Below are positions 11,690-61,276 of a stretch of DNA of 64,000 bases, one piece after another. A program made the translations under genes and the position numbers. The notes under the pieces are model-generated. The model had not been told where the DNA came from, searched no databases, and saw only the letters and a list, made by a program, of their open reading frames with translations. The DNA comes from Candidatus Latescibacterota bacterium (lineage in GTDB: Bacteria; Latescibacterota; UBA2968; GCA-2709665). Each line of letters begins with the position of its first letter. The stretch's first letter is position 1. The stretch lies in the NCBI GenBank assembly GCA_963667175.2, contig CAXXXF010000004.1, positions 288,001 through 352,000 of the forward strand, given 5' to 3'.

Positions 11690-11835
11690 GGGAGACCTAC
11701 CCCCTACCCCCCTTCCTGAAGGAAGGGGAACTGTGAACCGCTCAGGGCCTTCTGGTTTTCTCCCCCTTTCCTTTAGGAGAGGGGGCCTGCCTGCCGAGCA
11801 GAACTCGGCGCAGGCAGGCCGGGGGGAGAGGTCTG
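11690..11835. repeat. Composite palindromic intergenic repeat (CCCCCTACCCCCTTCC family) with nested GCCTGCCTGC mini-palindrome
   Basis: Close reverse-complement copy at ~34312-34456; related copies at ~15890-15992 and ~37528-37660. Confidence 0.8.
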
Positions 11836-15610: not shown

Positions 15611-16211
15611 ACCGTGAACCGTATGGAATTCGGGTTGACTTCAGGTCAGATATCCAGGGAGAAATATACGGCATTCGCCCGATACGCCAACAATTATATT
15701 TCGCAGATGGAGGCAAAGAGAATGAACGAAAGGCGAGAGGCACCCGGAAAGCGGGGAGACGTAAGACGTGAGACGGTAGAAGACGTCCTTGCCCGAATAG
15801 CTCTTCCTTTAAGCCGCCGACAGGAAGTGAAATCGCTCGGCGCATTCATATTCTCTCCCCGTCGACCACCCCCTATCCCCCTTCCCACGGGAAGGGGGAA
15901 CTGTCATCGCTTCAAGACATCTCGCTCTGCTCCCCCTCTCCCCCGGGAGAGGGGGCCTGCCTGCCGGCAGGCCGGCCGGGGGGAAGAGGTCTGCGCATCG
16001 GCGAGATTGTCTCGCCAGGCCGTATCGTCGTCCTGTGGCGCAGTGAGGTCCTCTTCCGTCTCCCGCCTGACCTCTCCCGTCTCACCGCCTTCAGGGAATT
16101 TGGGCAGACGTGGACGTTGATCTTGATTCTTGCTTTTGCTTCTCGCTGACCGCTGTTTGTTTTTCTTCGTGTCTTTGTGTCTCCGTGTGAGCTGCTTTTC
16201 GCTCTTGGTTC

Positions 16212-21547: not shown

Positions 21548-22249
21548 ATGTCGAGCTCACGTATCCGAACCGTCATTGAAGTCGTCCTGGCGGCGGGGTG
21601 CGCGTACCTGGCGCACGTCGCGTATATCGCCCCCGTCGACATCGCCATCAACTACGATGCCGAGAACGCCATTCAAATGCGGATTGAAGACAAAATGGTG
21701 GCGCATAACGCCGTCCTGGACTCGATCTGGAGCAAGGATTTCTCGAGAGACGCGACGCTGGGATGGTTGAGTGCAAAGGACGTCTATCACTACCGGAACA
21801 GCGCAATCGCAGGGCGCCTGGCAGAAGCAATGCCTGCTGCGCCGGAGGGCGCCGGCGAGACCATTGAAGAGCGAAAGGCGCGCCTTGAAGCCGCGATCGC
21901 GGAGAGCCCGTTGATCGCAGACCTTCGCGGCCGTGCCCGCGGATTACAGCCCCCGTTTCAGTATCTCGGCAAAAAGGTCAGCGTGGGCGTTCCCAGCGGA
22001 AACAGACCGCGTACGAACGTGGCGTACGTCGCCTTCGGGAGCGAATTCGACGGCAGGGTCGTTGAAATCTGGAATCCCGTAAACGACAAACGCGTGACGG
22101 TCTTTGCACAGGGCGCTTTCGTGCCCACGGAATCGGTCACCGTCGACTTCCAGATGAACCGGCGGCAGGCGGTAGACCTGTTCGATCGCGTCGAAGACAC
22201 CGCGGACGCCGTGGTGGTTATTCTTCCGCCGGCCACACCCGCGCCGTAG
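21548..22249 (+). CDS. Hypothetical protein with N-terminal membrane anchor
   Basis: 233-aa ORF with host-like codon usage and RBS; no recognised family. Confidence 0.65.
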   Translation: MSSSRIRTVIEVVLAAGCAYLAHVAYIAPVDIAINYDAENAIQMRIEDKMVAHNAVLDSIWSKDFSRDATLGWLSAKDVYHYRNSAIAGRLAEAMPAAPEGAGETIEERKARLEAAIAESPLIADLRGRARGLQPPFQYLGKKVSVGVPSGNRPRTNVAYVAFGSEFDGRVVEIWNPVNDKRVTVFAQGAFVPTESVTVDFQMNRRQAVDLFDRVEDTADAVVVILPPATPAP

Positions 22250-22538
22250 GGGAACTACACGTTAGCGGCTTTTCATCTTTTATGTGTCTGAGTGACAAGG
22301 ATTTACCTGATGCCTGATTCTCACTCATACGTTGGCACGAAATTCGCCTTTAAGTGCCAATTTATCAACTCAATTCCCTCCTCGATGATCAGGCCTGAAA
22401 CTCTGAGTGACCTAAATACCCTTTTATACTTAACTGTAAGCCCAGGCGTGTAAAGAGGGAGGGAGGGACAAGGTTTGATTTGGTGTAGAGGAAATTAACG
22501 ATGGGTGCTTTAAACCGACTCCGGCCGGTATATGGAAA

Positions 22539-22769
22539 CTACTTACTCGTGTCAAGCCCGAGGTGAAGCCAGGCGTCGAGCAAAGCCAAAAATCGCTTTT
22601 CCTCTACTTCTTGTGACTCAGGAACTAAAGGCATATCGTGTTTCCAATCCTGAAGAGTCTGCTTAAGTTTCAAGTGATATTCAGGGGGCAAGGTACGTAA
22701 TATGAAGATAGTTCCATAAAAAGCGACGGCTGCAATTTCAGATGGTGTGAGAGAATCGAGATCGGACAT
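22539..22769 (-). CDS. Small hypothetical protein in AT-rich island
   Basis: 76-aa ORF with GGAGG RBS. Confidence 0.55.
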   Translation of the reverse strand: MSDLDSLTPSEIAAVAFYGTIFILRTLPPEYHLKLKQTLQDWKHDMPLVPESQEVEEKRFLALLDAWLHLGLDTSK

Positions 22770-23024
22770 TTAATGCCTCCCCGCTAAAAGGTTTTGAGTA
22801 GTTGGTAGCGAGGACATGATAGATAGAACTAACTCAATCAGCAATAAAAAATCGGTCTAAGATCCGCGTCCTAGACCGTCACTTATTCGAGATCGGTAGC
22901 GTTTAACTTATAGGTATAATATACCTTTTGAGGGGTCAGAGGACAACAAGTTGGTTGTCAGGTTGATTATTTTCTGGCCGGAAGTATTAATTAATTCATA
23001 GTATCAGTTTAGAGAGGCGCTTTA

Positions 23025-23189
23025 ATGAAGAATTGTCCTCCTGTTTTAATTGAATGGGAAGACTCACGTCAACCAGGTTCCAATTGGCAATATCTCATTA
23101 ATTATACAAAACAGGGAGCTGTGCGTTGTGTTTCGGTTGGCTGGTTAATTCAAAATAAAACGCGATCATTGTGGATTCAGACTTTTTAA
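23025..23189 (+). CDS. Small phage-like protein, probably truncated
   Basis: Manual translation MKNCPPVLIEWEDSRQPGSNW..VRCVSVGWLIQ..TF*; GAGG RBS; below ORF-track cutoff. Confidence 0.5.
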   Translation: MKNCPPVLIEWEDSRQPGSNWQYLINYTKQGAVRCVSVGWLIQNKTRSLWIQTF

Positions 23190-23273
23190 TTGACACCCCA
23201 CCTCGTCCCTTGTATATTCCCCCTCGGATCGCTTCTCACCCTTACACCCCACGCGTAGAATTGCAGTTCCCCG

Positions 23274-24095
23274 CTGGACATCTTCACCCTCGCAGAACGG
23301 TTCAATTCCCAGGCTATTAGCCACCTTGAGCAAGTTCGCTTTGGAGAGAGGCCCTATTGCCCTCTCTGCGGTACTGTGGGCCGGTGCGCCCGGAAGCAAG
23401 AGAATGGTTTAATCGGCAGGTGGAACTGCTATGCCTGCAAGAGTTCCTTTAACGTCCTCTCGAAGACCATATTTCAAAAGACCCGAGTTCCATTGCCCAG
23501 GTGGTTTTTGGCCATCGCGCTAATGCTGAATGCGAAGAACGGTATTTCGTCATATCAACTGACCCGGAGCATCGGGGTGCTCCCGATGACCGCCTATCGG
23601 ATGCAACGGAAGATCCGGGAGCAGATGCAACGGGCCGAAGGTAAGGAGTTGCTGACCGGTATAGTAGAGGCCGGCGAAGCCTACCTGGGCGGAAAGCCGC
23701 GATACAGTAAGTCGGTTCGTGCTTACTGGACCAAAAAGACAATGTTGGTGGGTGCGATCGAGCACGGGGGAAGGGTCGCGGTCCGGGTCGGTACGAGTAA
23801 GTCCAGTGGCGCGGTCTATGAGGCTCTCAAGGATATGATTAAACGGGGGACGCGGTTGATCACCACGCGGCATAACTTATTCAAGTTGCTGTGGATTTTT
23901 GATCATCAGCCCAGGGCGACGCCTCTGCGTCAAATTGGGTTGTTTTTTGAATCGGTGAAACGGGCGTACTACTGCACTCATCATCACTACAGTTTGAAGG
24001 AGATGGAACTGTATCTGGCCGAGGCGTGTTATCGGTATAATCGGCGGAAGGAGGGGGATTTGTGGAGGGAGTTTTTGGAGGGTGTGGTTAACTAA
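23274..24095 (+). CDS. IS1595-family transposase derivative with substituted catalytic residues
   Basis: Frame open from CTG 23274: CPLCG..CYAC zinc ribbon, TIFQKTRVPL..W, KNGISS, YL.E..YRYNRR; DDE positions read G, T, G. Confidence 0.8.
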   Translation: MDIFTLAERFNSQAISHLEQVRFGERPYCPLCGTVGRCARKQENGLIGRWNCYACKSSFNVLSKTIFQKTRVPLPRWFLAIALMLNAKNGISSYQLTRSIGVLPMTAYRMQRKIREQMQRAEGKELLTGIVEAGEAYLGGKPRYSKSVRAYWTKKTMLVGAIEHGGRVAVRVGTSKSSGAVYEALKDMIKRGTRLITTRHNLFKLLWIFDHQPRATPLRQIGLFFESVKRAYYCTHHHYSLKEMELYLAEACYRYNRRKEGDLWREFLEGVVN

Positions 24096-24752
24096 TGTGG
24101 AATTTCAAGTATGACATCTGTGTGTATGGCAAGATCGTTTTGTATAGTTGAATGATAGAATTTTGTCAAACCAACTCTAAGTCCTTCTGTTCTAGCTAAT
24201 TTCATTGCAGGTACTAAATCAGAATCTCCAGAGACAACAATAATGCTGGAAACAAGTCGTTTTAATGCTAGACTGGTCATGTCAATACCCATCATCATAT
24301 CGACACCCTTTTGGGTGATGTTGGGGAGTAATGTCGCTATAATACGCAGCATTGCGCAGATCATGTTCTAAACCACGCACCTGATCTAATAATTTACTTA
24401 TGAATGATTTTTTAAGAGACCAACCACGATGAACTAATCGACCACGTCTAACTGCCACATTTGGTGATTTTTCTAATTCTGTGATGAGTTGGGTATTTTG
24501 TTTATATTGTGTTGTTGTGCGATAATTTTTACGTTTATCGGTACTTAGGGGATTTATAATTATCTCGGTGAGGGGGTTAGCTGTATAGTAAAAAATACGA
24601 TAAAGTTTTGTGATACCTGCAGAAGCTTGAAGATTGCGGATAGTGTGTAACACGGTATGTGCGTTTGGAAATTCTTTATTTTGGTGATGTAGATTTTTTT
24701 TAAACCATTCACCATCAATTAATATGGCGACTCGATCTCCTGGAAAGCTCAT
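24092..24752 (-). pseudogene. NYN (PIN-fold) domain nuclease, split by +1 frameshift (possibly sequencing error)
   Basis: AILIDG, RIFYY, then QKGVDM, SGDSDLVPAMKLARTEG in second frame; extra base in G4 run 24323-24326. Confidence 0.85.
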
Positions 24753-24772
24753 CTTTTACTCCTAATGCGTAT

Positions 24773-24854
24773 GCCCCCTGCGCTGCGTGCGATCTCCACC
24801 TAACCGCGTCCGGAGAGGTTTAATCGCTTTGGATAGTGACGAAGCGCAGGGGGC
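24773..24854 (-). ncRNA. Candidate structured leader RNA of the NYN gene
   Basis: GCCCCCTGCGCT (24773-84) / AGCGCAGGGGGC (24843-54) inverted repeat, GC-rich in AT-rich context, between promoter and RBS. Confidence 0.5.
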
Positions 24855-24893
24855 TAGATTTCAAGAAAAATATACTGAAAAGACAACTACAAT

Positions 24894-24922
24894 ATTATAT
24901 ATAATTTTGTGGCAAAGAGCAA
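24894..24922 (-). promoter_or_regulatory. Sigma70-type promoter for NYN gene
   Basis: TTGCTC-17 bp-TATAAT on minus strand. Confidence 0.7.
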
Positions 24923-25033
24923 GTCTTTTTAATATCAAGTCACTGGATCAAAATTTTATATAGTGGAGATAAAGAAACCGACTGATGGCGTTTCGGAACG
25001 TGTCAATAGAAATGAGACACCTCCCGTTGGGGT

Positions 25034-29302: not shown

Positions 29303-30412
29303 TCATGGCGTGAAAATGAAAATCTGATCCGAAATGGACTCATGAGAATGATTGACATCACTCCACTTCAATCCGCCGACGATAACGACGCGCCCGTCAT
29401 CGAGGAGCGTCACGGTCGCGCCGTGTCGCCACGGTCCTATGCTGTGTCCTGTAGGTGAAAATACCTGAGTGTCCGGATTATACAGTGCGATCTTGCCGTT
29501 GTCCCGATGGATGAAAAACACCCTGCCTGACGGCAGCAGCAGGGCGGCTAACGGATCCATTACGGACGTTCCGGCGGGCGAGAAGCTGTTTGTTTCGGGG
29601 TCGTAGATCTCGGCCGTCTGTACGCGAGGCCCGTCTCCGACCTGGCCGCCGACGATCATTACCCTGCCGTCCTGAAGGAGCACCGCCTTGTGGTGTGCGC
29701 GGTCGAACTGAAGGTCGCCTGCTCTTGAAAAGGCTTCGGACGAGGGATCGTAGATCAGATTCCGTCCGGTCAACTCGATTCCCCTGCGGGCTCCTCCAAC
29801 GATCAACACCCGGCCGTCCTTCAGCAAAGTCGCCGTATGGCCATAGCCGGGATGGTCTATCGCGTTTGTGTCGGAAAATGTACCTGACGCGGGATCGAAG
29901 ACACGCGCGCGCCCCGCGGATGACGCGCCGATTAAAAGGACCTCTCCGTTGGGCAACAGGGTGGCGGTCCGGGCTCCATTTGACCAGGGCGCGTCTGCCA
30001 CGGCGTCGAATCTGCCGGAGTGAGGGTCGTACATCTCAATAGGGAGTCTAAGAAATCTGGATATCATCAGGACCCGACCTTCAGCAAGCAATATCCCGTG
30101 GTCGTCCCATCGACTGGCGGTCAGGTCTCCCGTTGGTGTTGAGACCCCGGTTTCAGGATCGAAAATCTCCGCGCTGACAAGACCGTTGGGCATGAAAAGT
30201 ACACCATGTTCAGCAGGAGGCATTTCCGCGTTGCCGCCGGCAATCAGGACTTTACCATTCTGCAATAGCATCGCGACATGCTCAGATCTGGGTTGCGTCA
30301 TATTGCCGACCTCGCGGAGACCCCGTTCAAGGTCCGGCGCCGTCACCGAATCGCTTCCGCAAGCGCAGAAGCTCGCGACGACAAACAGCTTTATTACGAT
30401 TCTGGCGGTCAT
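29303..30412 (-). CDS. Kelch-repeat lipoprotein 2
   Basis: Lipobox FCAC; same repeat motifs; ends DQIFIFTP. Confidence 0.88.
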   Translation of the reverse strand: MTARIVIKLFVVASFCACGSDSVTAPDLERGLREVGNMTQPRSEHVAMLLQNGKVLIAGGNAEMPPAEHGVLFMPNGLVSAEIFDPETGVSTPTGDLTASRWDDHGILLAEGRVLMISRFLRLPIEMYDPHSGRFDAVADAPWSNGARTATLLPNGEVLLIGASSAGRARVFDPASGTFSDTNAIDHPGYGHTATLLKDGRVLIVGGARRGIELTGRNLIYDPSSEAFSRAGDLQFDRAHHKAVLLQDGRVMIVGGQVGDGPRVQTAEIYDPETNSFSPAGTSVMDPLAALLLPSGRVFFIHRDNGKIALYNPDTQVFSPTGHSIGPWRHGATVTLLDDGRVVIVGGLKWSDVNHSHESISDQIFIFTP

Positions 30413-30445
30413 TTTGTATCTCCTCTCGGACAGAACGCTGAAGAG

Positions 30446-30492
30446 GCGGGCAGACAGGAATGTCCGCCCCACCTTCGCTACGGATTCCTCAG
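30446..30492. repeat. 47-bp REP-like element, copy 2
   Basis: Same length and core as 29230-29276. Confidence 0.85.
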
Positions 30493-30505: not shown

Positions 30506-31609
30506 TTAAGGCGTAAAGATGAAGATTTGGTCCGTCATCTCCCAATTGTCGTTTTGCGTCACCCTGATGCCACCGGCGACCATGACACGGCCGTCTTCAA
30601 GCAGTGTAACCGTTGCCCACTGCCGCAGCGACCCCAGGCTGTGTCCGGTAGGTGCAAATGTATGTGTGGCGGGATCGTACAGCACGATATCGCCATTGAG
30701 CCGGTGGATGAGAAATACCTTGCCGGTCGGAAGCAGCGTGGCTGCGACCGGCTGGATGAGGGAAGTTCCGGCCGGTGAAAACGTATTGGTTTCAGGGTCG
30801 TAGATCTCGGCCGTCTGTACCTGAGTCTGCTGATCGGCCTTCAGGCCGCCCGCGATCAGGACCCTGCCATCCTGGAGAAGCACCGCTTTATGGGCCGAGC
30901 GGTCGAACTGTAATTCGCCGGCTTTCGTAAACGCGTTCGTCGAGGGATCGAAAATCAGATTTCGTCCGACCAAACCGTCTTCAGGTCGACCGCGCGTTCC
31001 ACCAACGATCAGCACGCGACCGTCCTTCAACAGCGTCGACGTATGGCCGAAGCTGCGATCGTCAGTCGCGACGATCGAGGGAAATGTCCCGGTTCCCGGG
31101 TCGAAGACACCCGTGTGCTGCGGGTTCGTTGCAAAGACCTTTCCGCTGGGAAGCAGGGTTGCCGTCGCGATGGCCGGATTCGCGGGTACGGTCGCCACGG
31201 CGCTGAAGCTGCCCGTACCTGGATCGTAATATTCAATGGGGAAACGACCAAGCCGCGACATAATCAGGACCCGACTGTCCGGAAGCAGGATTCCCTTGTC
31301 ATTGTAACGACCCACGGTCAGGTTCCCCGTTGGCGATGAAATCCCGGTTTCAGGATCGAATATCTCCGCGCTGATATGGCGATTCGATTCGTCTGCGATA
31401 TTGGGGAGCAGTTCTCTGTAGCCGCCTGCGATCAGGACCTTGCCACTCTGCAATAACGTTGCGACGTGCATACCCCGCCGGTGATTCATAGCGCCGACCT
31501 CGTGGAGACCCCGTTCAAGGGCCGGCGGCTCCGGCGTCGTTACCGAGTCCCCACCGCAGGCACACAAACCGGAAATAACAAACAGCATTATTGCGATTCT
31601 GGCGGTCAT
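30506..31609 (-). CDS. Kelch-repeat lipoprotein 3
   Basis: Lipobox LCAC; same repeat motifs; ends DQIFIFTP. Confidence 0.88.
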   Translation of the reverse strand: MTARIAIMLFVISGLCACGGDSVTTPEPPALERGLHEVGAMNHRRGMHVATLLQSGKVLIAGGYRELLPNIADESNRHISAEIFDPETGISSPTGNLTVGRYNDKGILLPDSRVLIMSRLGRFPIEYYDPGTGSFSAVATVPANPAIATATLLPSGKVFATNPQHTGVFDPGTGTFPSIVATDDRSFGHTSTLLKDGRVLIVGGTRGRPEDGLVGRNLIFDPSTNAFTKAGELQFDRSAHKAVLLQDGRVLIAGGLKADQQTQVQTAEIYDPETNTFSPAGTSLIQPVAATLLPTGKVFLIHRLNGDIVLYDPATHTFAPTGHSLGSLRQWATVTLLEDGRVMVAGGIRVTQNDNWEMTDQIFIFTP

Positions 31610-34187: not shown

Positions 34188-34608
34188 AACGGCAATCTGA
34201 CCCTCCCCTGGCCCCACACCCCCGGGGAGACGTTAGACGGGAGACGGGAGATGATCACACCGCGACCACGGGATGACGATATGGACTAGCGATATCAGTT
34301 CGCGGTTGCGCAAACCTCTCCCCCCGGCCTGCCTGCGCCGAGTTCTGCTCGGCAGGCAGGCCCCCTCTCCTAAAGGAAAGGGGGAGAAAACCAGGCGTCC
34401 ATCAAGCGGTGACAGTTCCCCCTTCCTCTCAGGAAGGGGGCTAGGGGGTAGGTCTCGTGAAGGCGGGGAGAGGGTAGAGGGGAGACGGTAGAGGATGTGA
34501 TTGCCCGGTGCGGTTTCATTTCGTGCCGGAGGCATAAAGGGAGAGCCAATCGGGCAAGGATGTCATCTACCGTCTTGCGTCTAACGTCTCACCGCCATTA
34601 GACGTTAG

Positions 34609-36318
34609 AGTCTTACAGTAAGACTTCAACGCAAGATGCGTAGAAGTTTGTTCATGCTGCTTGGATAGCGTTCCGGTTTGTGTGGTTGTCGTATAGTGTC
34701 AGTGAAGTCGCGAGGGTGACGTGTCCGGCCTGTGTGACGCGCCATCTTCTGGACCGAGGTATTTTAGCGATCAGGCCTCGGACGTGTAGACGTTTGAGGA
34801 GTCGGCTGACGGCGTTGGCTTGTCGTCGTCGCTGGTCGAGGGTTCTGGGTTGTTTGAAGAGGTGTTTTCGGATGTCCCGATTGCGGAAGCCCATCAGGGC
34901 GTGTTCGCCTTTCAGGACGGCGGTGAAGAGGTCGAGGTCGCGGGTGTCGGCGGGATTGAAGCCCCGATAGGTCCGCCCCTTGTGCCTGCGTGGTCGGGCA
35001 AGTGCGGCGAGGCTGTGACGGCTCTTCCCGGTGTCTGGTGCTGCTGCCAGCGCCTGAAGATAGTGTTGGTTGGCCTTCAATGAGATCTCCCGATAGCGGT
35101 AGAGGTTGGCCACCCCTTTGGCCATGGGATACCAGCCCATCACGCGTTGTCCTTGCCGTATGCCCTGGCGGCGGACCTTGAACTGCCTTGGATGGTTGAT
35201 CACTGTCTCTATGCGTAGTACGCGCCCGTGTTTGTCGTACATTTTTATCCAGTTCTCACACATCCGGTGTTTGACCCGTGCGCCGGGTTGGCGTTTGTTT
35301 TTGAAGTCCGTGAGGACTTCGCCCTGAAAGTTGCCGTGGAGTTTGCGTCCCAGGAAGGTCAGGATGTCCTGGGGAGAGAAGCACAGCACCGTATGTCTGA
35401 GCAGATTTTCATACAGCACCTTCAGGGCGTGGGGGCTTGTGAACATCACGTCGGTGGCGAACTCAGCCTGGTCAACGACCCAGTAATAGTCCATTCCCGA
35501 AAGCAGGTCTTTGAGCAGGGGGTTGACCCTGCGGGCAAGCCCGGAGAGAATGCGCGGCCAATTTTTCTCGACAAAACGATCGGCAAACCGTTGCGCCCGG
35601 GCCACGTCGTCGATCCATAGAAACGCGTTGTCTGCTTTGCGATAGGCAATGCCGTTTTTATCGAGCTTGCGCGCCAGGTATTCGTGGCCATTGAGACAGA
35701 CCTGCACCACCAGGGGGAACCACGACTGGATGCGGATATGCAGCAACCCGAACTCACGGTCGATATAGTAGAAATAGTAGCACAGGCACTTCCGCCGGGC
35801 GTTGCGCAGGCGAGGCCTTCCTTTCCCTGGAACCAGCTTGAAACTCTGACAGCCCTCCACGGCGCGGTACACACAGACCAGGCCGCGGGTGATCCCATCT
35901 CGTTGGGCGATGCGTCGCGCTTCCTCCTCTTTCCTGACGGTGTTGCGGTCGAGATAGAGGAACGGGCGCTTGTGCCTGCTCGCCATCGCCTCCGCGTGGG
36001 CTTTGATCGTTTTGGAATGCATCGTCACAAAACGCTTGAAGTCCTTCAACAAAAAACCCTGATTACCCATGAAACGCTCCATCGCATCGCCAAATCCCAA
36101 CGGCAGGTACCCCTTGAACAGAACCCGATCAAAACACGATACCACGCCACTGATTTTTTCATTATATTGGTCCACGAAGTCGTTCACGGCGTTCCTCCTT
36201 GGATTGATGGCGGTCGGGACCACCATCATAACGGACGAACGCCGCTTTTCATACCACAAAACAACCTGCCGCTTCAATACCACACTTTTTGGTTGCGGCT
36301 GAGCAAAGCGAAGCCGCC
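34609..36318 (-). mobile_element. Single-gene mobile element without TIRs, hairpins at both ends, flanked by TTAG
   Basis: TTAG at 34605-08 and 36319-22; hairpins AGTCTTACAGTAAGACT and GCGGCT..AGCCGC just inside the ends. Confidence 0.6.
34652..36187 (-). CDS. Putative transposase/replication-initiator-like protein with C-terminal winged helix
   Basis: SCFDRVLFKG, YYFYYIDREFG, LNGHEYL, IKMYDK..LRIETVIN, GFRNRDIR..RLHVRGLI.K; AAGGAGG RBS before GTG 36187. Confidence 0.7.
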   Translation of the reverse strand: MNDFVDQYNEKISGVVSCFDRVLFKGYLPLGFGDAMERFMGNQGFLLKDFKRFVTMHSKTIKAHAEAMASRHKRPFLYLDRNTVRKEEEARRIAQRDGITRGLVCVYRAVEGCQSFKLVPGKGRPRLRNARRKCLCYYFYYIDREFGLLHIRIQSWFPLVVQVCLNGHEYLARKLDKNGIAYRKADNAFLWIDDVARAQRFADRFVEKNWPRILSGLARRVNPLLKDLLSGMDYYWVVDQAEFATDVMFTSPHALKVLYENLLRHTVLCFSPQDILTFLGRKLHGNFQGEVLTDFKNKRQPGARVKHRMCENWIKMYDKHGRVLRIETVINHPRQFKVRRQGIRQGQRVMGWYPMAKGVANLYRYREISLKANQHYLQALAAAPDTGKSRHSLAALARPRRHKGRTYRGFNPADTRDLDLFTAVLKGEHALMGFRNRDIRKHLFKQPRTLDQRRRQANAVSRLLKRLHVRGLIAKIPRSRRWRVTQAGHVTLATSLTLYDNHTNRNAIQAA

Positions 36319-37403
36319 TTAGGGGCTGTAAATCAGAACCTGATCGGTCGCCTCGAGGTCCTTCAAGCCTCCAGCAATCAGCACGCGGCCGTCGGGAAGC
36401 AACGTTGTCGTGTAAAACGCGCGATTCTCGCCTATGCTGTCTCCGGTCGGGCCGAACGCACCGGTGGCGGGATCGTAGAGGATGACTTCGCCGCTGTTTC
36501 CAATGATAAACACGTCGCCCGATCGCAGTAACGTGGCCGCATGGATCGATTCGAGTCCCGGATCCCCTTCTGATGAGAACATCCCCGTCCCTGGATCGTA
36601 CCGCTCGGCCGCCGTAACCGACACCTCAGACCCCCTCGTCGTCGGTGGTCCCGCCAATGACCAGAACGCTGCCGTCCTGGAGAAGAATTGCCTTTGTGAT
36701 CTCGACGCTCGTATCTCAAGTCGCCTGTGCGCGTAAGCGTATTGGACAATGGGTCGTAGATTTCGCATTCCTGCACCATACCCAAGGCATTGCTGCCGCC
36801 GGCGATGAGTACGCGGCCGTCCCCCAGCCGGGTCGCCGTGTGGCCTCCGCGAATGCGGACCGTACCTGGAAGCGACGCGAAGTCACCAATTGCGGGATCG
36901 AAGAGGGAGACGCCCAGCGAGGTATAGGTGAGGATCTTCCCATTGGCCAGCAGCGTCATCGACGAGATGATCGCGAAGGCGGGCTCATACGGCTCGGGAG
37001 TGATTCGACCGGTTTGCGGATTGTAGAATTCCAGCGGGGCCTGAGCAGCGCCTGCGATCAGGACACGGCCGTCCGGCAGCAGTATTCCCACGTCGAGCGC
37101 GCGAGCCCGGGACATGTCGCCCCTTCTGCTCGAAGTGCCCGTCACGGGATCGAATATTTCCGTGCTGGCGCGAAACAGCGACGAAGGCACGTTACCCGGA
37201 CTGTCCGTGGCTGCGCCGCCCGAGATGAGCACCTTTCCGTCCTGCAACAGCACCGCCGCGTGCCAGAATCGCCTCTCCGTCATCTGACCGGCAACTTCGA
37301 AACCCTTCAGATCGCTCGTGGCTTCCGGGGACGTGGGCACGGGATTGCCGCAGGCCATCAAGAGCAAAATAAAAACCAGCGCGGAACCTGTTTTTCCGGA
37401 CAT
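36319..37403 (-). pseudogene. Kelch-repeat lipoprotein 4, +1 frameshift (possibly sequencing error)
   Basis: Lipobox LMAC; removing one T at 36693-95 restores HKAILLQDG; ends DQVLIYSP. Confidence 0.8.
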
Positions 37404-37660
37404 TCGACGTCCTTCCTCAGCGTCGTCAAAAAACAGCGATCAGCGGTCAGCATTCAGCCGTCAGCTTGAAGCAAGAAACCAACCAATTGACGTCGGCGCC
37501 GTGAAGCAGTGGGACAATCACGGGCGCAGACCTCTCCCCCCGGCCTGCCTGCGCCGAGTTCTGCTCGGCAGGCCGGGGGGAGAGGGGGAGAAAACCAGGA
37601 CACCGCGAGGGAATCACAGTTCCCCCTTCCCCCGGGATGGGGACAGGGGGTAGGTAGGCC

Positions 37661-49230: not shown

Positions 49231-49382
49231 GGCGAGCGTGCAGCAAACTGACAGTTCGCTCTACCAGATCAAGCGTACTCATCACTGAATCGCGCTCCGT
49301 TGCATCGTAGGGACACCCCTTGTGGGCCTGCCTGCCAAAGCGTCACTGGCAGGCGCAGGCAGGCCCCACCCTAACAACGGCA

Positions 49383-51019: not shown

Positions 51020-52998
51020 GTAGAGTCGAGATGTGGCGCGGTGGTTTAGGAGTGGCCTATCTGTTTCCGCCCCTTTCGTCTGGCGGTGCCTCAATAGCCG
51101 CTCCGTGCTCCGTTTCCACGTCCCGCTCATCGAACCGGACGTGCGGATTTACCGCATCCGGCTCTCGGACAAGGAGTCATGCGTTCGCCCACGGAAGGTT
51201 GCGCGCCTGTACTTCCAGCCGGGTCAGGCCCAACGTGTTGTAGAGGACCTGGTCATGGAAGCGTGACCTTCCCTTTCCCGGTATTCGGTACTTGTTGCAC
51301 AACCACCAGCGGAGCCGTTTCCGGGTGTGGCTGTCCACACTCCGATAGGCTTTGCTGGCCAGACCAAGACGGAAGTAGTTGCCCCACCCTGCCAGCTTTC
51401 GGTTCAGGTGGGCAATCCGTTCTTGATGGTCTTTCAGCAACCACCGTCGCGCCGTTGCCTCGCTGATGGCCCGGCAGATGTGCCGGATGGCCTTCTTTGA
51501 CGGGCGCGTGCCGATATAGGCCTTTCCCGTCTTTGGCGAGTAACAGCGGCCGATGGTGTAGCCCAGAAAGTCAAATCGTCCTTCCGGGAGCGTGCATATG
51601 CCCGTCTTCTGCTCGTTCACCGTCAACTTAAGCGCTTTCATGATGGATCGCATCGCACGCATCGCTTCTTCTGCACTGCCGCGACAGCAGATCACAAAAT
51701 CATCCGCGTAGTTGACAATATGAGCCTCCAGACGTTGCTGATGTCCCCGAAATTTCCATCCCAGAATGAACCGCCGCATATACAGGTTCGCCAACAGCGG
51801 GGAGATTGGGGCGCCTTGCGGTGTCCCCCTTCCCTGATCCTTGTTCGGCGTCGCTCGACGTTTGCGGCCCCGCTTGTCGGTCTCCTCAATCGGCGCGGTC
51901 AGCCACAGCTTGATCAGGCGCAGCATTCGCCCGTCACTGATGCGTCGCGCCACCGATTTCATCAACTCGGCATGCGGGATCGTGTCGAAGTAGCCGCTCA
52001 AGTCGGCGTCGATCACCTGCGTATGGCCGCGGCTCACCAGACTGTGAACCGCATTGATGGCGTCGTGCGCACTCCGTTTCGGGCGATACGCATACTGTTC
52101 CGCTGGCAGGTCCGCCTCAAAGATCGGCTCCAAGACCAGCATCGCCGCGGTTTGCACCACCCGATCCTTCACCGTCGGGATGCCCAACGGCCTTTGCTTC
52201 CCGTTCGGCTTGGGGATATATACCCGACGGATCGGAGACACCCGATACGATTTGCTCCTTACGGCTTCCGACAGTTCGCCTAACCACCGCTTTTGCCCGT
52301 ATGACTCGATATCCGCAAACGTCTCGCCGTCCACGCCCGCCGCGCCGCCGTTGGCCTTGCAGCAGCGGTACGCATAAAGCAGGATGTCCTCGCGATACAC
52401 TTTGTCATACAGCGCGTAGAATCGGTAGCCGGGCGATTCCTTCGCTTTGGCATGCAACGTCTTCCGCAACTTCCGAACCTTCTCCGGAGGTCTTAGGCTC
52501 ATACCAATCTCCAGGCTCTCGCTCCTTTGACGTTGCCCTTGAACCAAGGCCCCTTCCCTCCACCGGCATTACCCGGCTTCCCGGGTACTACGGGCCTCTC
52601 CGCCACCCCACACGGCCCGGCCTGACCCTCACGGGCGTCCGGTTGGTGTCTATACACCACCGAGGGGGGCTTCCCGTGTTGCGTCGGAACTCCTTGTATA
52701 CGTGCCTTCGCCATTACCCCGGCGGGACCGTTGGATGCGCGCGTTGCTCTCTTTTTCCAACGACGGCGGCCTTCCCCGATCCATGGGCGGGTCGGCTCCC
52801 GCATTACCTTTTTCGAGGCCTGCTCAGCGTTCACTCACGTTTCGGCCCGCATACTCGCCAGGTCGCCTTGCGACCCTCTACACCGGAGGCTTCGGAGATG
52901 TCGTTGCCTACGTCCCCGCTCCGGTTGCTACCGACCGCAGCAACATTTGTCGGGTGGGACTCTCACCCACTGAAGTTCCGCGCCTTTTCACGGCGCAC
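51020..52998 (-). mobile_element. Complete group II intron
   Basis: 5' GTGCG at 52998; domain V GAGCCGGATGCGG..CGTCCGGTTC; 3' end CTCTAC at 51020; EBS1 loop CATGGAT (52779-85) complementary to 5' exon ATCCATG. Confidence 0.93.
51177..52547 (-). CDS. ltrA: Group II intron reverse transcriptase/maturase, no endonuclease domain
   Basis: AAGVDG, RPLGIP, DADLSGYFD, GTPQGAPISPLLAN, YADD, FDFLG, GWGNYF. Confidence 0.95.
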   Translation of the reverse strand: MVQGQRQRSESLEIGMSLRPPEKVRKLRKTLHAKAKESPGYRFYALYDKVYREDILLYAYRCCKANGGAAGVDGETFADIESYGQKRWLGELSEAVRSKSYRVSPIRRVYIPKPNGKQRPLGIPTVKDRVVQTAAMLVLEPIFEADLPAEQYAYRPKRSAHDAINAVHSLVSRGHTQVIDADLSGYFDTIPHAELMKSVARRISDGRMLRLIKLWLTAPIEETDKRGRKRRATPNKDQGRGTPQGAPISPLLANLYMRRFILGWKFRGHQQRLEAHIVNYADDFVICCRGSAEEAMRAMRSIMKALKLTVNEQKTGICTLPEGRFDFLGYTIGRCYSPKTGKAYIGTRPSKKAIRHICRAISEATARRWLLKDHQERIAHLNRKLAGWGNYFRLGLASKAYRSVDSHTRKRLRWWLCNKYRIPGKGRSRFHDQVLYNTLGLTRLEVQARNLPWANA

Positions 52999-53575
52999 CA
53001 TGGATAAACAGGATGGACAGGATGAAAACCGAAAAGCAAGACAAGCTCACGAAAAAACGAACATCAGAAACTACGAAACACGCGAAACACACGAAAAAAA
53101 CACGAAGAAAACCGATCAGGATTTGCAGGATTAGCCTTGATTCGTAGTTCTTCGGGAACGATAATTCAAATAAACGCAGGCGAATAAAGGCGATTTGACG
53201 TCCGATTTCCACGAACCTTCAGGTCACTGGACGTGAACGGAATAAACGTCGTTCCGGACGACCTTTTTGGGTCCGTTTCGCAACGATACCCTTTGTGTCT
53301 TTTGTGCTTTTTGTGGCTAATTTAACGGTTGTCTTTTTTCGAATTGAGGTTAGAACCCAGGAGCAGGATGAAAACCGAAAAGCAAGACAAGCTCACGAAA
53401 AAACGAACATCAGAAACTACGAAACACGCGAAAAAAACACGAAGAAAACCGATCAGGATTTACAGGATTTGCAGGATTAGAAACCAGGAGCAGGATAAAA
53501 ACCAATAAGCGCGACAAAGGCGCCAGAAAACGAACATCAGAAACTACGAAACACGCGAAACACACGAAAGATCCG
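52999..53575. repeat. Degenerate A-rich tandem repeat (CAGGATG / CACGAAA / CAGGATTT modules)
   Basis: Units at ~52999-53133, 53359-53480, 53486-53570; further copies at 55254-55386 and reversed near 41410-41480 and 41620-41658. Confidence 0.8.
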
Positions 53576-53639
53576 TGGCTGACCCCATAAATTCACAAAA
53601 CAGTTGTCATGCCCCTTTGGGGCACCCATAATGATGAAA

Positions 53640-53858
53640 ATGGTTGCGTCAACAGACTTGTGTGGTAGGTTGTTGGCCACCATAACCCTTGGCTGGTCGA
53701 AGGTCGTTTTGTAGATGGTGCTATGAGCCTGAAAAACAGTTGGACCTGGGTATCTGGAGGTATCCATTATTGTCGCCCCCTGTAAAGGGAGAGCCCGCCA
53801 AGTAGACTCTTATCCCAGCAGATACCCGACCAGCCGGATCAGACACAGGAGGCCTGCG
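53640..53858 (+). ncRNA. Candidate bridge RNA region
   Basis: Non-coding end holds AAAACAGTTG (53733-42, equals 53597-606), TATCCAT (53761-67, complements 55261-67) and AAGTAGA (53800-06, equals 55248-54). Confidence 0.6.
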
Positions 53859-55199
53859 ATGCATGTCATCTACCCTTGTTGCGCTGGTTTGGATGTCCAC
53901 AAAAAGACGGTCGTTGCCTGCCGGATGAAGGCCGAAGGGTCAAAGCCGAGCCGGCGAGAGGTAAAGACCTTCTCCACAATGACCCGGCAGTTGCTGGCGT
54001 TGAGCGATTGGCTTTCTCAGTGGGGCTGCACCCACGTGGCGATGGAAAGCACCGGCGAGTATTGGAAGCCCATCTTCAACGTGCTGGAAGCCAACTTTGA
54101 AGTCTTGCTGGTCAATGCGCAGCACGTCAAACAGGTGCCAGGACGCAAGACCGATGTCCGGGATGCTGAGTGGCTGGCCGGGCTGCTGCAACACGGCTTG
54201 CTCAAAGCGAGCTTTATCCCCCCTGCCCTCCAGCGGGATTTGCGTGATCTGACGCGGTATCGCACCACATTGGTGCAGGAGCGCACCCGGGTGATCAATC
54301 GGGTGCAGAAGGCTTTGGAGGGCGCCAACATCAAGCTGTCCAGTGTGGCCAGCGATACGCTGGGCGTGTCGGGTCGGGCCATACTAAAAGGGCTCATCCA
54401 AGGCCAGGAAGATCCAGCAGCGTTAGCGGAGTTGGCCAAGGGCCGCTTGCGCAACAAGAAGGCCGACCTAGAGCAGGCGCTGACCGGCTTTTTCCGACCC
54501 CACCATCGCTTTTTGTTGAGCCACTTGCTGGTGCATCTGGACTTTCTGGAAACACAACTTTCTCAGCTGTCCGACCAGATCGCTCAACACATTGAGGCGA
54601 TGGGTGTGCCCCCAAAAGACCCGCAGCCTCCTTCGGGCGGTTCGCCCAAGCCTGCGCAGTCACCAACCGCCGCCTCGTCCAAGCCTGCGCAAGCTTCTCG
54701 GCTCCTTCCCAATCAGGCCATGGCCTTGTGGGATACGATTCCTGGCGTCAACCAGACCGTGGCCGAGGTTATGGTGGCCGAAATGGGCGTGGATATGGGC
54801 CGCTTCCCCACCCACCGGCATCTGGCCTCCTGGGTCGGCTTAGCGCCTGGAAACCATGAAAGCGCAGGGAAACGTCAATCGGGGCGCACCACCAAAGGCA
54901 ATCCTGCGTTGCGTCTTGCCCTCGTCCAGGCGGCCTGGGCGGCCTCGCGCACCAAAGACACTTATCTGTCCGCTCTCTATCGTCGGTTGGCCGCACGACG
55001 GGGCAAGAAACGCGCCTTGGTGGCAGTGGCTCATTCCATTCTCACAGCCGCCTATCATATGGCCTGTCACACACAACCCTATCAAGATCCGGGCAGCAAC
55101 TATTTCGATCAGCGCAAGAAACACGACGTTGTCTCTCGGCTCTCCCATCGCCTGGAAAAGTTGGGGTACAACGTTGCGCTTACGCTACAAGCTGCTTAA
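53859..55199 (+). CDS. IS110 family transposase/recombinase
   Basis: GLDVHK, AMESTG, RKTDVRDA (DEDD); GLAPGNHESAGK, KGNPALR. Confidence 0.95.
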   Translation: MHVIYPCCAGLDVHKKTVVACRMKAEGSKPSRREVKTFSTMTRQLLALSDWLSQWGCTHVAMESTGEYWKPIFNVLEANFEVLLVNAQHVKQVPGRKTDVRDAEWLAGLLQHGLLKASFIPPALQRDLRDLTRYRTTLVQERTRVINRVQKALEGANIKLSSVASDTLGVSGRAILKGLIQGQEDPAALAELAKGRLRNKKADLEQALTGFFRPHHRFLLSHLLVHLDFLETQLSQLSDQIAQHIEAMGVPPKDPQPPSGGSPKPAQSPTAASSKPAQASRLLPNQAMALWDTIPGVNQTVAEVMVAEMGVDMGRFPTHRHLASWVGLAPGNHESAGKRQSGRTTKGNPALRLALVQAAWAASRTKDTYLSALYRRLAARRGKKRALVAVAHSILTAAYHMACHTQPYQDPGSNYFDQRKKHDVVSRLSHRLEKLGYNVALTLQAA

Positions 55200-55797
55200 A
55201 TAAAAGAAAAACAACAGGATTCTTCGAAATCTGAAAGGTTATTTTCTAAGTAGAACTTATATGGATAGACGGGATGGACAGGATGAAAACCAAGAGGCAC
55301 GAAAAATGAACATCGAAAACTACGAAATACGCGAAAAAACACGAGGAAAACCGATCAGGATTTACAGGATTAGAAACCAGGAGCAGGGCAAATGCTCACT
55401 CTTGCAGGCAACAGCGATGAGTCCATCCACCCTGAAACCCCAACGTTTGCCGGCCAGACCGATTTCGGATTCTTAATGGATTTCGTTACAATCTCCACTG
55501 ATGTTATTGAAAATCAACCGATTATATAACAAACCCACCGGTTTTCATGACTATTTCGGGCTAAACACATCTGCGCGGACACATCGCCGGCATGACGCGA
55601 TGCGGGCAGACAGGAATGTCTGCCCGCCTGCCGCCTGCCTGCGCCGCTGCGCTTCCCGCGGCAGGCAGGCGCCCGGCCTCCCGCTACGGAGACAATCGAC
55701 CGGCTTGTCATTCTGAGCGGAGCGAAGAGCCTCCCGTCTTCTTCTCGATTGTCCGTAACGCAACAACAGGGAATCGGCAACTGTCAATCCCTACACT

Positions 55798-60865: not shown

Positions 60866-60979
60866 CGACCGATCAAAGCCGCAACAGGTTGTATCGGAAA
60901 ATCCGATCGCGGAATCGCCGTGTTCAGACGCAACCAGATGTGTGGAAGTGACCGCGCGTGCCCGACAAACGGGTCCAAT

Positions 60980-61166
60980 CACTCCCCCCTTGAGGGGGAG
61001 TCGCCTGCCTGCGCCTGCCTGTCCCGTTGGAACGGCAGACAGGCCAAGCGGAGCGCCTGCCTGCCGCGGGAAGCGCAGCGGCGCAGGCAGGCGGCAGGCA
61101 GGCAGAAGCCGAGCCGATCCCTGAGCTTGTCGAAGGGCCGGCGAAGGCTGATGCGGTGGGGGGATC
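60980..61166. repeat. Nested composite of several short palindromic elements
   Basis: CTCCCCCTTGAGGGGGAG host carrying three GCCTGCCTG..CAGGC units and a CCCTGAGCTTGTCGAAGGG unit. Confidence 0.75.
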
Positions 61167-61276
61167 GCAACACATCTTTGCTAGCTGGCAACGTGAAAAT
61201 GACATGAACGCATTTCGCGGAGAAGTCTTACTGTAAGGCTCTAACGGCCGAACGGACAGGATTCGGTGAAATCCTC

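Follow-up and report, generated by a model that had tools for sequence, protein, structure and literature searches.

A multi-copy bacterial insertion element bounded by CTA and encoding a putative Rep_trans-superfamily tyrosine nuclease

Transposons are classed by the enzyme involved, namely DDE, DEDD and HUH enzymes, serine recombinases, tyrosine recombinases, reverse transcriptases and Cas1. What kind of enzyme, then, moves an element whose only protein carries no recognizable recombinase signature? The question is raised by a stretch of 64,000 nucleotides from a Candidatus Latescibacterota bacterium (contig CAXXXF010000004.1, positions 288,001 to 352,000; hereafter, the window), in which positions 34605 to 36322 had been singled out in a preliminary description, made from the sequence alone, as a single-gene element with a Rep-like protein and without terminal inverted repeats, possibly a tyrosine-based single-strand transposon targeting TTAG/CTAA. 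The analysis reported here identified dispersed copies with precise ends and CTA at both junctions, and a protein model with a fold like that of the TATA-binding protein (TBP) and conserved active-site-like residues. The explanation that accounts best for the whole, and that we regard as rather probable, is that these copies form a family of insertion sequences mobilized by a tyrosine nuclease of the Rep_trans superfamily, which would cut 5'-CTA/R (the slash marks the cut).

Borders, copies and target site

A scan of genome contigs, with one genome per species, returned 15 loci. Eleven belong to a single complete chromosome of Candidatus Latescibacterota (OZ244744.1), another to a second chromosome, OZ241917.1 (protein identity 88%), and three to assemblies of Desulfobacterales, Phycisphaerae and Paludibacter (57–62%). 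Alignment of the 12 Latescibacterota loci with the window copy showed that similarity begins at CCTA[G/A][C/G]GCGGCTTCGC (first letters GCGGC) and ends at GTAAGACTCTAA in 13/13 copies, limits that coincide to the base with the borders 34605 and 36322 of the preliminary description, and that the flanks are unrelated. The unit in OZ244744.1 is 1,711 bp long; four copies (L002–L005) are 100% identical, four stand at 97.3–97.4% and one at 94.6%, two are interrupted, and those at L009 and L010 contain a premature stop. Judged from these sequences, identical copies beside decaying ones would be the trace of an active insertion sequence. The 11 copies with unrelated flanks in a single chromosome, four of them identical, bear out the view that the element is a transposon. 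Together with two unoccupied orthologous loci of a Burkholderia plasmid subfamily, described below, they also dispose of the possibility that the homologs are syntenic single-copy genes without empty alleles. Both interrupted copies in OZ244744.1 are broken near their 3' ends, that at L009 (5518–7070) by an insertion sequence of 1,553 bp that has terminal inverted repeats and contains an open reading frame of 495 aa, and that at L011 (5557–7152) by a 1,596-bp IS3-like element; a copy of a distant subfamily in Burkholderia sp. RPE67 (H58, AP014580.1 237556–242744) is interrupted by an IS3/IS911-type element.

TTAG stands at 34605–34608 and at 36319–36322 of the window, the latter overlapping the TAA stop (36319–36321) of a Kelch-like gene, as had been noticed before. 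A single TTAG pair is meaningless by itself; its weight comes from recurrence of the same borders in the 13/13 related copies and of CTA in a distant subfamily. This subfamily, found on plasmids of Burkholderia, Caballeronia and Paraburkholderia (~26% protein identity, 1,813 bp), starts with CTAAC-GAGGC..GCCTC-AGACC and ends with ..GGAATCTA followed by g (AATCTA/g) in 5/5 copies. A CTA on either side therefore characterizes the family as a whole. Each end has its own constant base after CTA, namely G on the left and A on the right in L002–L007, and A on the left and G on the right in the Burkholderia subfamily; because it differs between the ends and is not copied across, any duplication comprises at most three bases.

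Comparison with unoccupied loci places the target at a tetranucleotide. The occupied site at L026 reads ..CCATGGACATT/CTAACGAGG....GGAATCTAG/ATTCGCTTCGG (ACATT/CTAAC..AATCTAG/ATTCGC), and the orthologous unoccupied locus in two other plasmids reads ..CCATGGACATT-CTCG-ACTCGCTTCGG (ACATT-CTCG-ACTCGC), that is, one tetranucleotide occurs in place of CTA..CTA-G. By this comparison the G following the right-hand CTA at L026 would belong to the target; the pre-insertion sequence of the L026-bearing plasmid itself we infer from these orthologs. At a second junction, the left end of the copy at 'locus 2' in Burkholderia sp. YI23, three related plasmids read C-CTAG-G or TC-TAAG-G. In the Latescibacterota copies, c precedes the left CTA and a follows the right CTA in 13/13 cases, which points to CCTAA as their likely target; in the window, CCTAA falls within CCC-TAA, where the Kelch-like gene ends with its final sense codon and stop; the paralogs of that gene also end in ..P-stop. 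The proposed target TTAG/CTAA, in the form CTA-R, is therefore upheld by 13/13 and 5/5 junctions plus the unoccupied orthologous loci. Searches with the flanks of the 12 Latescibacterota loci for an unoccupied site gave no useful match, the right flank of L009 being syntenic with the window only from 326 nt beyond the element, and unoccupied sites of L023, L024 and L028 were not found in plasmids.

The element carries one gene. The open reading frame under translation table 11 is 34652..36283(-), of 543 aa. The gene start was placed at the GTG at 36185–36187, giving a protein of 511 aa as originally proposed, because homolog alignments begin only at residue 33–35 of the 543-aa frame and because the GTG lies 6 nt downstream of AAGGAGG (36194–36200). 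Read in gene orientation, 135 nt of non-coding DNA precede the gene, beginning CTAAG-GCGGCT..AGCCGC-AACCAAA, and 47 nt follow it, with two small hairpins and the terminus AAGACTCTAA. A second copy of the gene was not found within the 64-kb window.

The two ends are unlike each other. No inverted repeat joining them was found, and they are dissimilar in the 13 aligned copies, in agreement with the earlier reading; the hairpin that it placed just inside each end was located at 36295–36317 and at 34610–34646. The 3' end forms the stems GTCTTAC.GTAAGAC (34610–34624) and CTTC.ACGCA..TGCGT.GAAG (34624–34646), which are more stable as DNA folds than shuffled sequences (z −2.9, 2/200 shuffles as good; also z −2.7 and −2.0). 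Terminal TCTAA is present in all five Latescibacterota-type sequences, including the relatives of 57–62% identity, and distant relatives keep the same layout in different letters, with a short GC-rich stem directly after the 5' border, then AACCA, and with hairpins leading into ..AAGA[C/G]TCTAA at the 3' border. The 5'-end hairpin is supported because a GC-rich stem occupies the same place in every subfamily with differing sequences, as in L013, L014, L015 and L023. Upstream of the gene, a predicted leader stem sequesters both the Shine-Dalgarno sequence and the start codon by pairing them to DNA further upstream (fold z −3.6); it is retained in 8 sequences, with two-sided changes in 5/20 predicted pairs, and probably restrains translation. 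An Rfam search of 34200–36700 gave no match at E<=1. A sigma-70-like promoter considered in the 5' end is absent from distant relatives, so no claim is made for it.

Fold and active-site residues of the element protein

Searches of Pfam, NCBIfam, PHROGs and PDB sequences with the protein and with a 59-sequence profile returned nothing for the first 360 residues, and the C-terminal matches were weak and of MarR-like or other winged-helix type (HVO_A0261_N in 16/59 members, HTH_45 in 10/59). No Pfam or NCBIfam transposase model matched the 511-aa protein, nor did either database yield an RNase H-like/DDE match, and the absence of a recognizable recombinase signature noted at the outset was thereby confirmed in these databases. 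In the ESM Atlas the whole protein led to unnamed 'hypothetical protein' clusters, and residues 1–360 to nothing usable among named clusters.

More could be learned from structure prediction. An AlphaFold2 model built on 59 homologs, with 30–83% identity to the window protein, reached a mean pLDDT (predicted local distance difference test) of 91.6 in full-length and core versions alike, and divides the protein into a core of two TBP-like beta-alpha repeats and a helical C-terminal region with a winged helix (Table 1). The highest-probability PDB matches in Foldseek were the Rep_trans initiators RepSTK1 and RepDE (4cij A–D, 4cwe_A) and TATA-binding proteins: the core matched 4cij_A (E 4.8e-3, probability 0.95), 4cij_C (0.93), 4cwe_A (0.85) and the TBP 1vol_B (0.95, TMt 0.45), and the full-length model matched 4cij_A (0.89). 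Among viral models in BFVD, the top match was A0A2N9QVX7 (E 1.3e-4), and A0A345MNV4 was matched with probability 0.99. The same two models, a phycodnavirus TBP and an Inoviridae PF02486 initiator, are also matched by RepSNJ2, a confirmed rolling-circle initiator, according to the available portion of PMC13107129. No RNase H-fold protein was present among the listed Foldseek matches. The structure search advised in the preliminary description thus revealed a TBP-like double repeat whose highest-probability enzyme matches are Rep_trans proteins, at weak E-values, and not the RNase H/DDE fold that it had named as a refutation.

The Rep_trans active site, as set out in the available text of PMC5714925, consists of motifs N' (D), I (RxD), II (T/SxY/ExG), III (YxKxxE) and IV (W/LxRxE); its metal site is of D-D-E type, and a beta-strand carries the tyrosine. 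The available sections of PMC13107129 give Y191, D46, D142 and E214 as active-site residues of RepDE, and those of PMC4797284 describe R189 and K193 as critical for religation and the catalytic domain as crescent-shaped, with an extended beta-sheet of TBP type. The RepC sequence of pT181 contains SFD46AMT, TRLD142LAFD, IR189IY191NK193 and WR212VE214IE. In the window protein, KMYDK..LRIE, the arrangement that had first suggested a Rep-like protein, lines up with motifs III and IV and is conserved in 57–59 of the 59 homologs, and candidate residues for motifs N' and I stand upstream of it, all of them on predicted strands (Table 1); one outlier homolog, P0136, has a sequence that looks garbled across the motif stretch. 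In hhalign comparisons with a Rep_trans alignment of 14 sequences (pT181-type proteins plus six plasmid loci, effective sequence number (Neff) ~3), the best local match between the profiles joined SCFD20RVLFKG to SFD46AMTIVG. With the second repeat only, KMYDK was paired with IRmYNK and E242 with D142 (P 0.008), and the first repeat gave P 0.029, both for windows picked after the motifs were known. A Rep_trans-superfamily tyrosine nuclease is the best-supported reading of the enzyme, and we consider it fairly probable, with the tyrosine chemistry, and Y317 as the putative nucleophile, deduced from the motif correspondence.

Table 1. Coordinates of the element, its parts and a related remnant in the window
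Feature	Position	Strand	Description
Whole element	34605..36322	-	1,718 bp with CTAA counted at both borders; similarity limits of 13 copies at exactly these bases
5' border CTAA (TTAG on + strand)	36319..36322	-	CCTA-R in 13/13 copies; overlaps the stop of the Kelch-like gene
5' subterminal hairpin and box	36288..36317	-	GCGGCT..AGCCGC at 36295-36317, then conserved AACCAAA box at 36288-36294
5' leader stem	36185..36244	-	Shine-Dalgarno sequence and start codon paired with upstream stretch
Single gene, putative transposase	34652..36187	-	511 aa, GTG start, AAGGAGG at 36194-36200; homologs begin here
Catalytic core (predicted)	35114..36187	-	residues 1-358; two TBP-like beta-alpha repeats (~12-177, ~235-354), long antiparallel strands
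F-D20-R	36128..36130	-	strand 12-27; D20 in 59/59 homologs; corresponds to motif N' (D46)
Q-x-E242-x-A-x-D246 (E242-F-A-T-D246)	35450..35464	-	strand 235-249; E242 58/59, D246 58/59; motif I (R-x-D142-x-A-x-D)
K315-M-Y317-D-K319	35231..35245	-	strand 312-319; K315 57/59, Y317 58/59, K319 57/59; motif III (R189-x-Y191-x-K193); proposed catalytic tyrosine
L-R325-I-E327	35207..35215 (R325-E327)	-	strand 323-330; R325 59/59, E327 59/59; motif IV (R212-x-E214)
C-terminal region	34655..35113	-	residues 359-511; helical, with MarR-like winged helix (~415-485), presumed DNA-binding
3' non-coding end	34605..34651	-	two hairpins (34624-34646, 34610-34624), terminal AAGACTCTAA
Solo 3'-end remnant of a related element	61208..61246	+	39 nt (hairpin and TCTAA), 87% match to 34603-34641, no gene, beside a REP-like repeat

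Proposed mechanism and rival explanations

In the proposed reading, the N-terminal part of the protein is a Rep_trans-superfamily nuclease domain with TBP fold, and its C-terminal MarR-like winged helix most likely recognizes the subterminal hairpins. Y317 would act as the nucleophile, D20, E242 (with D246) and E327 as metal ligands, and K315, K319 and R325 as basic residues for strand rejoining, as in RepD. At the left junction, the right end and the target alike, the enzyme would nick a single strand 3' of CTA, remaining on the 5' phosphate through its tyrosine, and the element would be moved by strand transfers of the kind seen in rolling-circle replication, IS200/IS605 and IS91. The excised strand would run from the base after the left CTA through the right CTA, the mobile unit containing just one of the two border CTAs; resealing would leave the donor as CTA-R, while the element plus one CTA would be added to CTA-R in the target. 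The arrangement observed, CTA-[element..CTA]-R, follows from this single cleavage rule, which follows the same logic as IS608 and the termination of rolling-circle replication but would be executed by the other fold of rolling-circle nucleases. The left, promoter-proximal end would serve as origin and the right end as terminator, and the leader stem, by hiding the ribosome-binding site, would probably keep expression low. A single-stranded or rolling-circle route is plausible; the intermediate may be circular or single-stranded, and the enzyme may act as a dimer.

A one-ended event may be recorded in plasmid CP003090.1 of Burkholderia sp. YI23, where a 7,458-bp segment made up of the element and 5,644 bp beyond its right end occurs twice with 100% identity (L030 3787–11244; L029 3549 onward/L031 to 2006). 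Its left limit coincides with base 1 of the element, and two sister strains carry the ancestral copy of the segment only. Read-through past the terminator end, as in IS91/ISCR, would give such a duplication, in what is a single and confounded case: the 7.46-kb duplication ends at the end of an IS66 element without target duplication, which suggests a replicon rearrangement in YI23; the plasmid lacks the sequence that should lie beyond the new target; and other rearrangements could have produced the duplication.

The strongest rival, which we consider unlikely at a level that still demands attention, is a transposon whose protein shares the TBP-like scaffold only, with CTA duplicated as true 3-bp target DNA after a staggered cut (cut-and-paste or copy-out) and the Rep_trans likeness convergent or coincidental. 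Much of what favors it also counts against a Rep_trans nuclease. A 3-bp target duplication by staggered double-strand cuts explains CTA at both ends equally well, and predicts the same single tetranucleotide where the site is empty. In OZ244744.1, the orientation of the copies alternates between 1.57, 1.67 and 1.84 Mb; such mixed neighbors do not fit a strict IS608-type strand bias and lend no support to a single-stranded intermediate. No Foldseek match in the PDB reached E<=1e-3, the TM-scores to Rep_trans were 0.32–0.33, and the best PDB E-value belonged to an unrelated helix-grip cyclase (4xrw, probability 0.41–0.72). Whole-length hhalign against the 14-sequence alignment was not significant (probability 0.3%), a whole-length comparison with RepC alone gave no support, and the P-values for the separate repeats are weakened by the post hoc choice of windows. 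PF02486, the Rep_trans model of Pfam, was matched neither by the window protein at E<=1 nor among the 25 most-matched families of the 59 members (E<=10).

Further difficulties concern details of the active site and the ends. Motif II was not found, motif I is QxE instead of RxD and motif III has no E at its end. Two further invariant tyrosines, Y138 and Y140, were paired with the Rep tyrosine by greedy hhalign, and are alternatives to Y317 as the nucleophile. The unoccupied orthologs of L026 read CTCG, not CTAG, in flanks that are only 86–90% identical. The 5'-end hairpin is not thermodynamically unusual in comparison with shuffled sequences (z −0.7, −0.9 and 0.0); like the alternating orientations and the identical footprint expected of a 3-bp staggered cut, this speaks against a strictly single-stranded route tied to the replication fork. 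Against the scaffold-only alternative stand seven polar residues that follow the Rep_trans active site in both their sequence of occurrence and the types of strand that bear them, and that are kept in 57–59 of the 59 homologs down to 30% identity, as well as the lack of any RNase H, DEDD, serine- or tyrosine-recombinase signature in Pfam, NCBIfam or Foldseek results. Asymmetric ends without inverted repeats would also be unusual for enzymes that cut both ends alike, and the base after CTA is specific to the end within one copy (G left and A right in L002–L007).

A second alternative, which we hold to be improbable, is that the protein is the rolling-circle initiator of a tiny integrative replicon, either plasmid or satellite, with the chromosomal copies as integrated forms and the metagenome contigs of 1.7–2.2 kb, on which most homologs lie, as free circles. 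The fold and motifs do resemble Rep_trans initiators, and single-gene Rep_trans plasmids of similar size exist, such as the 1,489-bp plasmid in L020. However, contig L015 (1,687 nt) begins and ends at the terminal motifs of the family and not at arbitrary points of a circle, L013 has flanks on both sides, and 11 copies are dispersed in one chromosome. No match was found among 50,697 phage records, and the 15 matching records out of 72,556 plasmid records measure 199 kb to 1.95 Mb, with one further (H73) of 56.5 kb, all far larger than the element. The weakest alternative, an ordinary ArsR/MarR-type host regulator duplicated by chance, draws on the winged-helix C-terminus and on one RefSeq record that names a homolog an ArsR family regulator, and is ruled out by the copy and flank data, since the same non-coding ends bound the copies to the base amid unrelated flanks, unoccupied orthologous sites exist, and four identical copies occur beside decaying ones with stops (L009, L010) or nested insertions (L009, L011).

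Relation to known systems and distribution of the family

The closest likeness is to Rep_trans initiators and MOBT relaxases (RepC/RepD of pT181/pC221, RepSTK1, NicK, Orf20, RelSt3), with which the element protein, as modeled, appears to share a TBP-like crescent beta-sheet core and an acidic triad that combines with a strand-borne tyrosine in like succession (D..E/D..K/RxYxK..RxE), besides a separate DNA-binding part of helix-turn-helix type and a cleavage site, here predicted, beside a hairpin. In pT181, the origin hairpin has the loop CTCTAA (L016 4355–4382), a hexamer that also forms the 3' terminus of the element. In contrast to these proteins, the element protein is ~200 residues longer, has large insertions, lacks a Pfam match, and is the sole gene of a two-ended, multi-copy chromosomal element instead of serving the origin of a plasmid, phage or conjugative element. 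Rep-Arvir/RepSNJ2 (DUF7845, PF25227), as characterized in the available part of PMC13107129, combine an N-terminal TBP-fold catalytic domain of ~300–360 aa with a MarR-like winged helix, show comparable residue spacing (E25, D207, Y283 and E303 there; D20, E242/D246, Y317 and E327 here), and reveal their tie to Rep_trans by structure alone, with the two BFVD targets named above. They are archaeal and borne by viruses or plasmids, whereas the element is bacterial and resembles an insertion sequence, and the window protein has no DUF7845 match at E<=1.

Resemblances to known insertion sequences lie in the ends and the target. Like IS200/IS605 elements (HUH Y1 TnpA, e.g., IS608), the element has no inverted repeats, subterminal hairpins at both ends, a single small enzyme, and insertion beside a fixed target of 3–4 nt that resembles its own presumed cleavage sites, without variable duplication. 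IS200 also has a leader stem that hides the ribosome-binding site, like the 5' leader stem described above. The enzyme of the present element, however, is of an unrelated fold and three times larger, with no HUH motif or Y1_Tnp, and neighboring copies lack a clear orientation bias. IS91, ISCR and Helitrons (HUH Y2) are similar in their asymmetric origin-like and terminator-like ends, tetranucleotide target and, in the one confounded case, possible read-through, but the element protein contains no HUH or Y2 domain in Pfam or NCBIfam. IS110 (DEDD, bridge RNA) also lacks inverted repeats and has a short core at both junctions and a long non-coding 5' end, and differs in fold; the element gave no DEDD/IS110 match in Pfam or NCBIfam and no Rfam match in its ends.

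The family is large. Scoring of 8,000 candidates gave 5,404 matches at E<=1e-3, and 7,469 representative clusters (50% identity) were obtained at E<=1e-3, 786 of them at E<=1e-30. Members occur in Latescibacterota, Planctomycetota, Desulfobacterales, Bacteroidota, Burkholderiaceae, Rhodococcus and mycobacteria. Among the best 120 homologs listed, 102 have a longest contig of <=3 kb by our own count, as expected because an element-sized repeat collapses or breaks assemblies. None of these 120 has a precomputed Pfam domain, and the sources name them 'hypothetical protein', apart from one 'CBS domain-containing protein' and one 'predicted transcriptional regulator'; RefSeq plasmid records label homologs 'hypothetical protein' or 'ArsR family transcriptional regulator'.

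Several features of the window surround the element. The 39-nt stretch at 61208..61246, without a transposase gene nearby, appears from its similarity to the 3' end to be the leftover of a related copy. An intergenic REP-like repeat family with GCCTGCCTGC..GCAGGCAGGC palindromes and G-rich stretches occurs at ~11785–11820, 15751–15965, 34300–34595, 37540–37660, 49326–49365, 55633–55670 and 60960–61140; the 3' border of the element lies ~10 nt from one such repeat, and the remnant at 61.2 kb lies beside another. The Kelch-like lipoprotein gene abutting the element (36319–37403, minus strand) requires two frame changes within ~70 nt (near 36640–36720) to match its paralogs at 29303–30472 and 30506–31609, and is either a pseudogene or the product of an assembly error. 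Positions 51020–52998 are 86% identical to and syntenic with L009 7460–9438, so that the organism of the window is related to that of OZ244744.1. The G+C content drops at 22001–25000 (0.39–0.51) and at 53001–54000 (0.475), compared with ~0.6 elsewhere, which may reflect foreign DNA.

Rolling-circle initiators of the HUH line gave rise to IS91, IS200/IS605 and Helitrons. Whether the present family is the first recognized one with a transposase of the Rep_trans/TBP-fold tyrosine-nuclease type, and thus a second recruitment of rolling-circle initiators for transposition, independent of the HUH line, is a claim for which we see the balance as even. Full-text searches on Rep_trans/TBP-like transposases and new insertion-sequence families, with ISfinder and most subscription journals outside their scope, returned no description of such a transposon, so that an earlier description is possible; the available part of a 2017 review handles transposition under HUH enzymes only.

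If the proposed reading is true, a family driven by a nuclease of Rep_trans fold would add a class of transposons, and the kinship already known for replication proteins and transposases of the HUH type would have its counterpart on the second known fold of initiators of rolling-circle replication. The family is also widespread and numerous, with thousands of clusters in many bacterial phyla annotated as hypothetical proteins or regulators, and it breaks assemblies and stays unannotated because it is invisible to Pfam and NCBIfam. As a compact one-protein system that inserts at a site of 3–4 nt, presumably through a covalent tyrosine intermediate, it may also serve as a tool for DNA insertion.

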